Virus record (IMG/VR): IMGVR_UViG_2778261667_000004
Location: 1 to 7,210 of that record
Direction: 5' to 3' (one strand)
Origin: a virus
Lineage: Duplodnaviria > Heunggongvirae > Uroviricota > Caudoviricetes
DNA length: 7,210 bases
This document shows positions 1-7,210 of the stretch, one piece after another; positions within the stretch are counted from its first letter, which is position 1; each line of letters begins with the position of its first letter. Under the pieces are notes generated by a model, which saw nothing but the letters and a program-made list of their open reading frames with translations, was not told the origin of the DNA and made no database searches. A program made the position numbers and the translations under genes.

Positions 1-567
1 TTCTTGCACCGTCTGATAGAGCGTCATCTCTTCAGCATTGTGCCGTATAAAATCTGCTTTCCCGCCTATTTTTCCATCAGCATGAACAGGCACCAACCAG
101 GGGTGCTTGAGGCGAACTTCAATCGGTGCTGCATGTTGATGGTGCCACTTACACAACGGGAGGACGTATTTATGGGCATCTTTAGCCGTTCTGCCAAATA
201 TGTGGTGGAGAGATACGACAGGGCTATACTTCCCGTGAAGATGGCAGGCAATACAGGGGAGTTTGCCTATAGCGTCCTGTATCCGGCGCTCTTCTGCTGT
301 GAGTGATCTCCCTTTTAATCCGCGTGACGTGCGCGTTTTTTTGGGGAGGGCTGACGTCGCTCTCTCTCTTCTGCGCTGTTCACTTTGCCTCGCTTTTTCA
401 AGTTTCTTTTGACGATATTCAGGCGATGCGGCTTTTTCCCTTGCGCGTTGCTGCTGGCGTTGAGCCTGCTGAAGACGTTTTGCCCTTTGCTCTTCCCGCC
501 ATTCCGGATCAGCCAGTTTTTGCATGGCTTTTTGTCTCTGTTTCTCCCAATAACTCTGTCTCTGCAT
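1..567 (-). CDS. Ref-like HNH endonuclease (P1 recombination enhancement function family), 3' end beyond window start; alternative start at 525
   Basis: Reverse-strand frame open from 567 to position 1 with no stop, so not in the ORF track. Translation: MQRQSYWEKQRQKAMQKLADPEWREEQRAKRLQQAQRQQQRAREK...GLKGRSLTAEERRIQDAIGKLPCIACHLHGKYSPVVSLHHIFGRTAKDAHKYVLPLCKWHHQHAAPIEVRLKHPWLVPVHADGKIGGKADF...TVQE. Basic, probably disordered N-terminus followed by a CxxC...HH...CxxHH zinc/HNH-type motif, matching my recollection of P1 Ref. Only weak SD-like AAGAGA upstream of ATG 567. Confidence 0.7.
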   Translation of the reverse strand, partial: MQRQSYWEKQRQKAMQKLADPEWREEQRAKRLQQAQRQQQRAREKAASPEYRQKKLEKARQSEQRRRERATSALPKKTRTSRGLKGRSLTAEERRIQDAIGKLPCIACHLHGKYSPVVSLHHIFGRTAKDAHKYVLPLCKWHHQHAAPIEVRLKHPWLVPVHADGKIGGKADFIRHNAEEMTLYQTVQE

Positions 568-685
568 GTTGGCTGTCTCTTACTTATCAGCGATTTTTTA
601 TAATTGATCATATTTGTTAGTTATTCAAAATTGATTTCTAACATAAAACATTAATATCATCACTGATAACTGTTTGGAGGACATG
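568..685. promoter_or_regulatory. Divergent AT-rich control region between Ref-like gene and rightward operon; inverted repeat TGTTAG(615-620)-N17-CTAACA(638-643); candidate -35 TTGATT (631-636)
   Basis: Non-coding AT-rich stretch between two divergently oriented starts. Inverted repeat and TTGATTT/TCTAACATA words are shared with 4767-4788. The -10 is ambiguous (TAATAT 652-657 at 15 bp spacing, or TATCAT 655-660 at 18 bp). Confidence 0.3.
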
Positions 686-838
686 ATGCTTATAGCTTTA
701 AGTGCGATCCACCAGCCATCTGTGAATGAGATCGGTCTGTTCTATGTGCTGTTTTTCGGGGCGTTGGCGCTACTTGAGCTTGGTATTGAGCTTTTTGCCG
801 TGCTGATGTTTTGCGTCACGATGCTGGGGAAATTTTGA
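686..838 (+). CDS. Small hydrophobic (membrane) protein, about 50 aa, first gene of rightward operon; not in ORF track
   Basis: GGAGG at 676-680, then ATGATG (683/686). Translation: MLIALSAIHQPSVNEIGLFYVLFFGALALLELGIELFAVLMFCVTMLGKF. Stop TGA 836-838 overlaps ATG 838 of the next gene (TGATG). Hydrophobic stretch long enough for 1-2 TM helices. Confidence 0.45.
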   Translation: MLIALSAIHQPSVNEIGLFYVLFFGALALLELGIELFAVLMFCVTMLGKF

Positions 839-2202: not shown

Positions 2203-2609
2203 AGAAGATGATTTTTGTGGCGGCATTGGTGGCCATTACCCAACAGGCACAGGCTTCAGCAGTTATTGTGGCATCTACCGCCGCGACAACGGCTGCTGTA
2301 GCTGCTGCGAACTCTGCGAATATCGCAAACCAACAGGCACAGCGTGCTGCCAATGCATCAGCCGGTGTTCAACCAATTACCATTAAGGCCAGTAAGCAAA
2401 ATCTGGGGTTCATAACGTGCGGCAAGCGTTCTTATGAAGCTGTAGGCTCTCTGGGATGTACGGTATATGGCGATAGTGAGAGTAGAGAAATTCCATGGAA
2501 AACGTGGCCCGGATACGTTCTCGGCTCGAAGCTCCCGGCCAGCTATGAAGTAAACGCCGTATCGTTTGATCACTATAACGGCGTGGCAACTGTCTATTTT
2601 GCATATTGA
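2199..2609 (+). CDS. Secreted/periplasmic protein of unknown function (signal peptide, Ala/Thr/Asn-rich linker, two-Cys C-terminal domain)
   Basis: AGGAGGT SD then GTG 2199 in a GTGA overlap. N-terminus MKKMIFVAALVAITQQAQA|SAV is a textbook Sec signal with AxA cleavage site. Low-complexity linker, then globular C-terminus with Cys-x13-Cys. No lipobox. Confidence 0.7.
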   Translation: MKKMIFVAALVAITQQAQASAVIVASTAATTAAVAAANSANIANQQAQRAANASAGVQPITIKASKQNLGFITCGKRSYEAVGSLGCTVYGDSESREIPWKTWPGYVLGSKLPASYEVNAVSFDHYNGVATVYFAY

Positions 2610-2617
2610 GGCTCCGC

Positions 2618-3322
2618 ATGAAATTCTCCAAATTTTCTGAGTTGGTGAATCGTATTTTGTCCAACAACCACAGCCATCATAGCGATATGGATGTGACGAT
2701 CGTTGTTCATTCGCCTGGCAGCATTGGTTCAACACCCTCAGTTGAGGTTCAGTCAATTCACGCTGGTTTTGATTGGGATTCCGGGAAAGTGCTGATTTTC
2801 CCAGCACAGCCACTGACCACGCTAACACCAGAACAGATTACTGATATTACTGATAGTGTGCGCAAAGGTCAGTCCTGGCACGCATATCAGGAATACAAGA
2901 AGCATAAAGAGCAGTTGGAAAAATTGTCGATTGAACTTGATGCCGCAAAACAGCGCGTTGCAGAGCTGGAGAGCAATCGAGCGGCGCTGGCGGCGGAGAA
3001 TGCAGGGCTAAAGGCGATATGTGATGACCGTCGCAGGCTCATCATGAATGGGGTGCAGATGGGTTATATCAAGGTGCCAACAGCGGAAACAGATCCAGAC
3101 CTTGAGACAATACGTATTGCTATATCACCACAAAAGCCCATTCCAGCCACCGATGCTTTCTTGGCTGAAGTGCGGGCGGAGGCGTTTAACGACCTTTGCG
3201 CGGCGTTTGTCATGGACGCGAGGGGAGTAGGACTGGATGATGACGAGCTAGTGACGCTTAAAGATGCGACAGGTGCGCTGCTGCATTGTGCAGAACAGCT
3301 TAGGGAAGGGGGCAGTCAGTGA
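2618..3322 (+). CDS. Ea22-like protein (Ead/Ea22 family), full-length paralog with distinct N-terminal domain
   Basis: GAGG SD then ATG 2618 (track TTG 2606 would overlap the upstream stop). Coiled-coil NRAALAAENAGLKAICDD and PIPATDAFLAEVRAEAFNDL shared with the other two Ea22-like genes; unique N-terminal domain (DVTIVVHSPGSIGSTPSVEVQSIHAGFDWDSGKVLIFP). Confidence 0.8.
   Translation: MKFSKFSELVNRILSNNHSHHSDMDVTIVVHSPGSIGSTPSVEVQSIHAGFDWDSGKVLIFPAQPLTTLTPEQITDITDSVRKGQSWHAYQEYKKHKEQLEKLSIELDAAKQRVAELESNRAALAAENAGLKAICDDRRRLIMNGVQMGYIKVPTAETDPDLETIRIAISPQKPIPATDAFLAEVRAEAFNDLCAAFVMDARGVGLDDDELVTLKDATGALLHCAEQLREGGSQ
2981..3002 (+). repeat. 22-bp direct repeat (GCGGCGCTGGCGGCGGAGAATG), identical copy at 6968-6989, 16-bp core also at 1797-1815
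   Basis: Exact string match read from the sequence; encodes the AALAAEN coiled-coil segment of the Ea22-like paralogs. Confidence 0.85.
3143..3180 (+). repeat. About 38-bp near-identical direct repeat (PATDAFLAEVRA-coding), partner at 7118-7156, more diverged copy at 1936-1977
   Basis: CCAGCCACCGATGCTTTCTTGGCTGAAGTGCGGGCGGA versus CCAGCCACCGATGCTTTTCTGGCTGAAGTACGGGCGCA; a handful of mismatches by eye. Confidence 0.8.
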
Positions 3323-4828: not shown

Positions 4829-5824
4829 ATGAGTGCAATAATCACCCCATATGTCGTAAATGAAACTGGTGTGGCTGTCTTTCCTGTAGATAAGCCCACC
4901 AGCAATTACATCGGCGCAGGACGCCGTTTCATTATCTCTCCACTTCCGCGTGAACAGGCGGAAAACACGCCAGATGGCGTAGTGGATCTGAATTATTCGC
5001 TGGTTGCCAACCAGTCTCTGAAACCATTTTTTCAAAGCGAGCGCGTATTTAACGCATTAGGCGGTGAAGATTCGCTTGTTCATTGGGTAAGTTCCAATAT
5101 CCACGATTGCCAGGCGCACGATAAGCGCGATTGCAGCCACCAGCTAACCACCCATTTCTATAACGGTTCTGCCGTTCGTCTGTGCTGGAAGCATGATGCG
5201 GAATACATGATGAAGGGATACGACAAGCTGGAAGACCAACTGTCACTGAATCGCGCCAACTGGATTATGAACTGGGCTGCCAGCGAGTTAAAACTTCCGC
5301 CAGATCGCGATCTGAGCATGGTTGAACTCACCTTTTGGGCCATTCGCCGGAATCTTAAAGACGAACTGCCTGATGAAGCTGGTCGCATTGCATTTTGTCA
5401 GCCAAAAACTGAAATCCCTACCGGCACCCTGAAAGAGTCGGATATTACCTGGGAGCATAGTACCCGCGAGCTGGTGGATATTTCCGCAGAGCAGATCGTC
5501 AATCTGTCCGTCGATGAAGATTCTGGCCTCCTATATATGCGCCGTCCAAAAACCTTACTCGGAAAAAGCCAGGCTTATCTCCGGTTTGTGGTGTCTCGCC
5601 CATGTGTAGGCTGCGGCGGCAAGGTTAATCACCCGTTCATGTACCGTGCCCGCTCATTAAACGAACACGACCGCTGGGCTGTTCCTCTTTGCGATGACTG
5701 CGCCAGAAGCGCAGAAAACGATGTCCGGGCATGGGAAAAAGCACATGGAATACGCCTTTACGTAGCAGCTAACCAGCTTTTCGACTTCGCCATCGAGCGC
5801 GGAGTGATCACGTTCAATAACTGA
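4829..5824 (+). CDS. DUF968-like prophage protein with C-terminal Cys-rich (CxxC...NEH...CxxC) Ref/HNH-like zinc motif
   Basis: 331-aa ORF after the promoter-like region. C-terminus RPCVGCGGKVNHPFMYRARSLNEHDRWAVPLCDDCARS parallels the PCIAC...HH...PLC motif of the Ref-like gene. Overall resemblance to enterobacterial prophage DUF968 proteins is from memory. Weak SD. Confidence 0.7.
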   Translation: MSAIITPYVVNETGVAVFPVDKPTSNYIGAGRRFIISPLPREQAENTPDGVVDLNYSLVANQSLKPFFQSERVFNALGGEDSLVHWVSSNIHDCQAHDKRDCSHQLTTHFYNGSAVRLCWKHDAEYMMKGYDKLEDQLSLNRANWIMNWAASELKLPPDRDLSMVELTFWAIRRNLKDELPDEAGRIAFCQPKTEIPTGTLKESDITWEHSTRELVDISAEQIVNLSVDEDSGLLYMRRPKTLLGKSQAYLRFVVSRPCVGCGGKVNHPFMYRARSLNEHDRWAVPLCDDCARSAENDVRAWEKAHGIRLYVAANQLFDFAIERGVITFNN

Positions 5825-6419: not shown

Positions 6420-6678
6420 GTCAAAATGCCAAATTAATGGCAACAAGATAGAACCGTGCGCGGCGTTGACGCAATCCCTGGAGCATGACGCTGAATACAC
6501 GACGCGAAAAGGTCTGCTGAAATACAAAATCTATAACCATGCATTAATTCATTCACAAGACCTGATCATGCTGCGGTCTGGTGAATTTTCTAAATCACCG
6601 ATTCGAGTTTCATTTTGCCCGTTCTGTGGTGAAAGTCTGAAAACGTGGGAAGCGGAGGCAACCAGTGAGCAAAATTAA
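6412..6678 (+). CDS. Small Cys-containing protein (possible zinc ribbon), unknown function
   Basis: GTG 6412 inside junction GGGGGCAACCAGTGAGTGA, overlapping the ASCH stop. Cys-x9-Cys near N-terminus and CPFC near C-terminus. Confidence 0.5.
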   Translation: MSESKCQINGNKIEPCAALTQSLEHDAEYTTRKGLLKYKIYNHALIHSQDLIMLRSGEFSKSPIRVSFCPFCGESLKTWEAEATSEQN

Positions 6679-7210
6679 CTATCAAGAACTGCGCGAGGCG
6701 GCGGAACAGGCAACGCAAGATGAATGGGTAGCATATATTTTGCCGGGTCATAACGGCATTTATCCTGCGCGCACGTCTGAGGGTAGGCATTGCGGATACT
6801 TTATTGACTGGCCTGGCATTGATGGACAAAGGAATGCTGGTGCTAATGCCCGTTATATCGCGGCTATCCCACCAAAAGTTGCGCTGGCACTCCTGGGCGA
6901 AATTAAGCGCTTGGAAGACACAAATATTGATGCTATGTGCCGAATTGCAGAACTGGAGGCCTGTCGCGCGGCGCTGGCGGCGGAGAATGAGCTGGCTCGT
7001 AAAGCAGTTCAGGCATTCTGCGATGTTGTTGGCGACAACACCGAGGTTATCGCTGAGGAGATTGGGAGAGATGGTGTTCTGGCTATTTTGGAGGCCATGA
7101 AGGCAACAGGAAATATGCCAGCCACCGATGCTTTTCTGGCTGAAGTACGGGCGCAGGGGGTGGATGCTGCTATAGAAGCTGCAAAAAATCTGGTGGTCCA
7201 AGAATATGAG
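6665..7210 (+). CDS. Ea22-like protein (Ead/Ea22 family), N-terminal part; continues beyond window end
   Basis: Open frame from GTG 6665 to the window end with no stop (absent from ORF track). GGAGG 8 nt upstream. Translation VSKINYQELREAAEQATQDEWVAYILPGHNGIYPARTSEGRHCGYFIDWPG...ACRAALAAENELARKAVQAFCD...NMPATDAFLAEVRAQGVDAAIEAAKN is typical of the family as I recall it. Confidence 0.8.
   Translation, partial: MSKINYQELREAAEQATQDEWVAYILPGHNGIYPARTSEGRHCGYFIDWPGIDGQRNAGANARYIAAIPPKVALALLGEIKRLEDTNIDAMCRIAELEACRAALAAENELARKAVQAFCDVVGDNTEVIAEEIGRDGVLAILEAMKATGNMPATDAFLAEVRAQGVDAAIEAAKNLVVQEYE
6968..6989 (+). repeat. 22-bp direct repeat, partner of 2981-3002
   Basis: Exact string match read from the sequence. 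Confidence 0.85.
7118..7156 (+). repeat. Near-identical direct repeat, partner of 3143-3180
   Basis: See partner entry. Confidence 0.8.

Follow-up and report, generated by a model that had tools for sequence, protein, structure and literature searches.

The left end of the window (the whole stretch of DNA that was analysed, 7,210 nucleotides) carries on its minus strand (567..1), with a probability of about 0.9, the ref gene of a phage-plasmid that is D6-like and related to P1; the gene product is expected by homology to share the RecA-dependent mechanism of P1 Ref. An earlier, sequence-only reading had recognised a P1 Ref-like HNH nuclease at this place, and the profile and structure searches agree with it. 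The protein matches Pfam PF16786 (RecA_dep_nuc) with 120.9 bits and an E-value of 3e-35 over profile positions 2-97 of 103 (gathering score 26.9), PHROG 2321 "Ref-like RecA filament endonuclease" with an E-value of 1.5e-75, and the P1 Ref structure 3PLW (3plw_A) with an E-value of 4.7e-49, where aa 28-184 are aligned with 10-175. A scan of the Ref protein and of the DUF968 protein encoded further downstream against NCBIfam returned no family. The gene belongs to an already annotated, well-characterised family found in a common class of phage-plasmids. Its features in the window are the following.

1..567, minus strand: ref gene; the window covers codons 1-189, and relatives have 3 more codons and a stop (192 codons expected)
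301..567, minus strand: basic Gln/Arg/Lys-rich N-terminal region, aa 1-89, counterpart of the disordered, DNA-binding N-terminus of P1 Ref
10..300, minus strand: Ref nuclease core, aa 90-186, His-Me finger / HNH fold (PF16786 match and identity to P1 Ref)
244..255, minus strand: CxxC (CIAC, aa 105-108) with Cys105 and Cys108, aligned with P1 C96/C99
202..207, minus strand: His121-His122 (in SLHH, aa 119-122), aligned with P1 H112/H113
139..153, minus strand: CxxHH (CKWHH, aa 139-143) with Cys139, His142 and His143, the last equivalent to P1 H134
82..84, minus strand: His162 in PVHADG, equivalent to P1 His153

Reading frame and source element

Translation of the minus strand from 567 to 1 gives 189 codons without a single stop, as had been read from the sequence, with an ATG at 565-567 and a protein that starts MQRQSYWEKQ. 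A stop-free run of this length is expected in random sequence at a rate of about 1e-4. The ATG is the first possible start, since an in-frame stop is located five codons 5' of it. At window base 1 the frame is still open. Its end was read from a relative: the orthologous CDS in NZ_LT906557 (RL465 plasmid, 95% identical) reaches 12 bases past window base 1, which corresponds to three codons and the stop, and the C-termini of the orthologues are MVN or LIN followed by the stop. The stretch of the protein that matches the Pfam domain ends before these missing codons. The mechanical ORF list omits ORFs that run off either end of the window and therefore does not contain the ref frame. At the left end it shows 4..306(+), 66..251(-), 315..611(-), 303..620(+) and 385..603(+) instead, the first three of which had already been noticed as listed in place of ref.

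The source element was characterised by nucleotide matches. The first 1500 bases are 84% identical to phage D6 and were matched in 99 of 5426 complete E. coli genomes, in 101 places on plasmids and in none on a chromosome; the best E. coli plasmid matches are 95-96% identical. The whole window is matched by 899 PLSDB plasmids, mostly Escherichia and Salmonella replicons of ~90 kb. By these matches, the window belongs to a phage-plasmid of the D6 type, a relative of P1. The same frame is found in every annotated relative as a CDS of 192 aa named "Ref family recombination enhancement nuclease" (WP_077249931 / WP_119188298), and in phage D6 as orf87 (YP_009914764, 'Ref-like RecA filament endonuclease'). 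These proteins are orthologues with the same start codon, length, neighbours and intergenic region, a protein identity of 84-95% and only allelic differences to the window gene. In a collection of 5.8 billion proteins, the nearest cluster is a 95% identical protein of 192 aa from Salmonella enterica, and 144 relatives were obtained, many of them on Enterobacterales contigs of ~90 kb.

To compare the overlapping frames, window positions 1-700 were aligned with the orthologous DNA of NZ_LT906557 (RL465), pKOr024_2 and phage D6. The alignment has no gaps inside 1-567. In the Ref frame, 17 of 28 substitutions relative to RL465 are at third positions, as are 68 of 107 and 73 of 110 relative to KOr024 and D6, respectively, and dN/dS is 0.09-0.17 (Nei-Gojobori), which shows purifying selection. 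Synonymous and non-synonymous codon changes were counted against KOr024 and D6 in each frame:

567..1, minus strand: Ref frame; 53-57 synonymous, 30-31 non-synonymous; no defects in relatives
4..306, plus strand: shadow ORF; 5-6 synonymous, 44-46 non-synonymous; the TTG start is AAT in D6 and KOr024
66..251, minus strand: shadow ORF; 3 synonymous, 28-30 non-synonymous; no defects seen in relatives
315..611, minus strand: shadow ORF; 3-4 synonymous, 34-38 non-synonymous; stop in RL465

That the listed ORFs (4..306 plus, 66..251 minus, 315..611 minus and 303..620 plus) are the real genes and the long reverse frame is accidental has a practically negligible probability. These are the only ORFs shown by the mechanical list at the left end, and in the three relatives no stop interrupts 4..306(+) or 66..251(-). 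However, codon changes are overwhelmingly non-synonymous in the shadow frames and mostly synonymous in the Ref frame, a pattern that bears out the shadow status previously assigned to 4..306(+), 66..251(-) and 315..611(-). No codon evidence favours 315..611, which in addition to the stop in RL465 has its ATG split from its body by a 1-base indel near 594 in all three relatives. Compared with Pfam and PHROG, the five shadow ORFs gave nothing better than E 0.28, and they are annotated in no relative examined. Open in the relatives, 4..306(+) was also considered as a real antisense gene and was rejected for the loss of its start in D6 and KOr024 and a share of ~90% non-synonymous changes.

Two further observations concern the nucleotide sequence of ref. 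Relative to the RL465 plasmid, 4 nucleotide changes are found in the N-terminal half and 24 in the core (dS 0.018 vs 0.285). This uneven divergence suggests a mosaic with a recombination junction inside ref. A terminator-like hairpin with a T run (CGCGTGACGTGCGCG TTTTTTT) lies antisense within ref at 321-336 (+) and probably results from the Lys/Arg-rich coding sequence.

Conserved residues and comparison with P1 Ref

P1 Ref (YP_006474, PDB 3PLW; Ref of P7 and phiW39 is near-identical) and the window protein share a basic N-terminus and a His-Me finger core, and both genes reside on a plasmid-prophage. Overall identity is ~52% (87 of 168 aligned residues) and rises to 66% in the core (aa 81-189). 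The N-terminal ~89 residues are highly basic and probably disordered. The basic character that had been ascribed to this region is found in aa 1-79, with 25 K+R and 10 D+E, compared to 25 and 9 in aa 1-76 of P1 Ref. Within it, KLADPEWREEQ (aa 17-27) is repeated as KAASPEYRQKK (aa 45-55), with 8 of 20 residues identical; the repeat units in aa 17-62 (within window 301-567, minus strand) are KLADPEWREEQRAKRLQQ and KAASPEYRQKKLEKARQS. Both copies occur in most aligned family members, whereas P1, P7 and their relatives have one. The window N-terminus is longer than that of P1 and contains a second (A/S)PE(W/Y)R repeat that the P1 group lacks.

In the core, the CxxC...HH...CxxHH arrangement described from the sequence is present as CIAC, LHH (aa 120-122) and CKWHH. 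A six-sequence alignment equates C105, C108, H121, H122, H132, C139, H142, H143 and H162 with P1 C96, C99, H112, H113, H123, C130, H133, H134 and H153, so that the zinc and active-site residues (C96/C99/C130/H133, H112/H113, H134 and H153 of P1) all have their counterpart. These nine Cys/His columns and Gly125-Arg126 are invariant in an alignment of 28 family sequences, and all are present here. Two residues differ: Cys11 of P1, which is needed for the disulfide dimer, is Arg in the window protein, and C122 of P1 is Ala.

P1 Ref binds two Zn ions, and its active-site ion is held by three histidines; exchange of the zinc-coordinating active-site residue H153 (H153A) abolishes cleavage of cssDNA and the second cut in a D-loop (PMC3973344). 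The H134/153A variant is used in vivo as a nuclease-dead Ref (PMC4713147). In the Ref literature, H153 is likened to colicin E9 H131. From this likeness and the HNH pattern, C105, C108, C139 and H142 would form a structural zinc knuckle and H121, H143 and H162 would hold the catalytic metal, with H121/H122 placed at the end of beta-strand 1 after the model of colicin E9 H102/H103.

The charged N-terminus of P1 Ref (76 residues) is disordered and required for DNA binding (PMC4330346). By homology, the basic N-terminus of the window protein would bind DNA and tether the enzyme in the groove of the RecA nucleoprotein filament, and the HNH core would then nick the DNA to which RecA is bound. The first cut in a D-loop would be a fast one, in the paired strand. 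A second, slow cut of the displaced strand, which would need ATP hydrolysis by RecA, would lead to a double-strand break; in P1 Ref this second cut depends on ATP hydrolysis and on H153. During lytic growth, such activity in the cell would promote RecA-dependent recombination and increase SOS and DNA damage. The orthologue from which RecA dependence is predicted here shares 52% of its aligned residues overall and 66% in the core.

In P1, ref belongs to the lytic cycle; its product strengthens SOS, makes lysogens more sensitive to ciprofloxacin and leads to filamentation (PMC4713147). For SOS induction the N-terminal domain of P1 Ref suffices, and filamentation requires neither RecA nor nuclease activity (PMC4713147). 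These two properties favour another view, namely that the window protein is a true Ref homologue with a main role other than RecA-dependent cutting, either SOS induction by N-terminal DNA binding together with a nuclease-independent block of division, or that it is poorly expressed or decaying. The Shine-Dalgarno sequence points in the same direction, since it is AAGAGA in the window vs AAGAGG in three relatives, so that ref expression may be weaker. However, the frame is intact over 189 codons, the catalytic and zinc ligands are all invariant across the family and dN/dS of the core is ~0.09-0.13; the last two observations speak for selection on the nuclease. This alternative is considered quite improbable, and a nuclease of the P1 Ref type is the preferred reading.

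A further phage enzyme with related properties is Gp16 of Staphylococcus phage PhiNM1, a NinB-HNH RecA-dependent nuclease (PMC12817073). With Ref it shares its nature as a phage HNH nickase, the CxxC...CxxH zinc finger and RecA-dependent action (PMC12817073). Its architecture differs in the NinB-like N-terminal domain and the IscB-like HNH, and its description does not present it as a homologue of Ref.

Intergenic region and the divergent operon

Upstream of ref lies a short region from which the neighbouring genes diverge:

568..682, no strand: divergent intergenic region, 115 bp, AT-rich (25-28% GC), between ref (minus strand) and the plus-strand operon that begins at 683

Conserved blocks of this region are present in four relatives, and it presumably carries one or more promoters and operators. 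Candidate operators are two nested inverted repeats, TTATCAGCGAT/ATCACTGATAA at 584-594/659-669 (91% complementary) and the pair 603-620/638-655 (72% complementary). The arm 603-620 was sought elsewhere in 15.5 kb of the closest relative (RL465 plasmid), where only the orthologous copy was obtained. A promoter consensus scan returned one sigma-70-like site on the plus strand at 631-660, which is no more than expected by chance, and no site for ref. Two T runs of 568-682 are each one base shorter in the window than in all three relatives.

The locus is organised differently from that of P1. The P1 order is cre-c8-ref-mat, and the promoter P2ref is overlapped by Oref (annotated at 1173-1189 of the compared P1 locus), a C1 operator. 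The window ref instead diverges from a plus-strand operon that includes DUF4406 and pdcB. With up to 3 mismatches allowed, the P1 C1 operator consensus ATTGCTCTAATAAATTT is matched neither in the window nor in 15.5 kb of the closest relative, and regulation of ref may therefore differ from P1; the C1 operator is a feature of the P1 ref locus, not of the Ref protein family. Starting from 568-682, ref and a long early-type operon (DUF4406 ... metallophosphoesterase, DUF968/PdcB, Ea22-like) would be transcribed divergently.

The first gene of the plus-strand operon is a hydrophobic ORF of 51 aa at 683-838 (+), MMLIALSAIHQ..., that is hypothetical in relatives and whose stop overlaps the DUF4406 start. 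Three plus-strand proteins (1765-2202, 2606-3322 and 6662-7210) share the motif PATDAFLAEVRA(E/Q) and look like paralogous ead/Ea22-like modules of one operon. At the right edge of the window, a plus-strand frame is open at ~6675-7210 and runs off the end; it is Ea22-like and contains MPATDAFLAEVRAQG. Here the ORF list shows only an antisense shadow of 203 aa at 6590..7201(-).

The DUF968 protein and its C-terminal domain

The sequence-only reading had proposed that a second Ref-type zinc-nuclease-like module is located in the DUF968-like protein of the window.

4829..5824, plus strand: DUF968 protein, 331 aa, homologue of P1 PdcB and E. coli YdfU (PF06147, PHROG 96)
5549..5821, plus strand: C-terminal zinc-knuckle beta-beta-alpha domain, aa 241-331, with invariant C259, C262, H280, C288 and C291

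The protein matches PF06147 with 154.2 bits (cut-off 27.8; E 4.6e-45) as well as PHROG 96. It is 38% identical to P1 pdcB over 99% of its length and also homologous to the YdfU proteins of lambdoid prophages. As the protein is a PdcB homologue, P1 itself has the same gene pair. PF06147 and PF16786 belong to the same His-Me finger superfamily but to different groups, and a role in recombination has been hypothesised for DUF968 (PMC5714182). His-Me finger group 7 (DUF968/DUF1364), which comprises P1 PdcB, E. coli YdfU and YbcO (PDB 3G27), is akin to this second module only.

Direct sequence similarity between Ref and the DUF968 protein is marginal. BLASTP pairs CIAC of Ref with CVGC and LPLC with VPLC, at E 0.048 over 40 residues. 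With hhalign, the two family alignments match with a probability of 24% over 42 columns. Searches of the PDB sequences with the DUF968 protein (phmmer) and with its alignment profile (hmmsearch) gave chance-level matches only, and neither 3g27 nor 3plw was among them. When the two C-terminal domains were scanned separately against Pfam with E-values up to 10, PF16786 and PF06147 did not cross-match, and no other HNH family was returned.

For the isolated domain, more was learned from structure prediction. The full-length AlphaFold model of the DUF968 protein is mediocre, and a Foldseek search with it returned nothing useful. The model of aa 241-331 alone (pLDDT 86.7) has a beta-hairpin and then a helix, that is, a predicted beta-beta-alpha fold preceded by a zinc knuckle. 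Its nearest solved structure is P1 Ref. Next in rank are ribosomal protein L28 (5.7), the IscB HNH (5.6), YbcO 3g27 (5.0), Cap5 (4.5) and other HNH nucleases; Foldseek with the same model gave nothing significant. In the predicted model, the domain is structurally closer to Ref than to YbcO of its own family and keeps the zinc knuckle but not the active-site histidines of Ref.

The residues set the two domains apart. The invariant ligands of the DUF968 C-terminus (C259, C262, C288 and C291) form a C4 set, in contrast to C3H in Ref. In the hhalign alignment (probability 24%), H121/H122 of Ref are opposite R273/A274, and H143 is opposite A292. H268 varies among homologues (H/R/T), and the sole invariant His of the C-terminal domain, H280, is located in the loop between the strands. 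The proposed second module is therefore supported at the level of the fold, with P1 Ref nearest to the model of aa 241-331, but not at the level of the motif, which is C4 and not that of Ref. It seems unlikely that the domain, as a module derived from Ref or like it, recognises RecA filaments or recombination intermediates, either without canonical HNH chemistry or with H280 as catalytic residue.

In its N-terminal half, the model of the DUF968 protein shows a second beta-hairpin and helix at aa 94-130 (~5108-5218), with strands at 106-111 and 114-119 and a helix at 120-129. C94, C119, W120, H122 and D123 (RLCWxHD) are invariant in this unit, which BLASTP pairs weakly with LPLCKWHH of Ref. This unit may represent another zinc or His-Me-like module.

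As an enzyme, Ref has been characterised, and an allele with 95% identity to proteins that already bear the name "Ref family recombination enhancement nuclease" has little biological weight. The use of the ref result is methodological: ORFs that cross an edge drop out of the ORF track, and shadow ORFs are listed in their place. The predicted structural closeness of the DUF968/PdcB C-terminal domain to Ref is the only mildly new element. Were the domain indeed a Ref-like module, phage-plasmids of the P1/D6 type would possess two related tools aimed at host recombination. For this widespread prophage protein, whose function is unknown, P1 Ref as the nearest structure offers a specific lead that can be tested.
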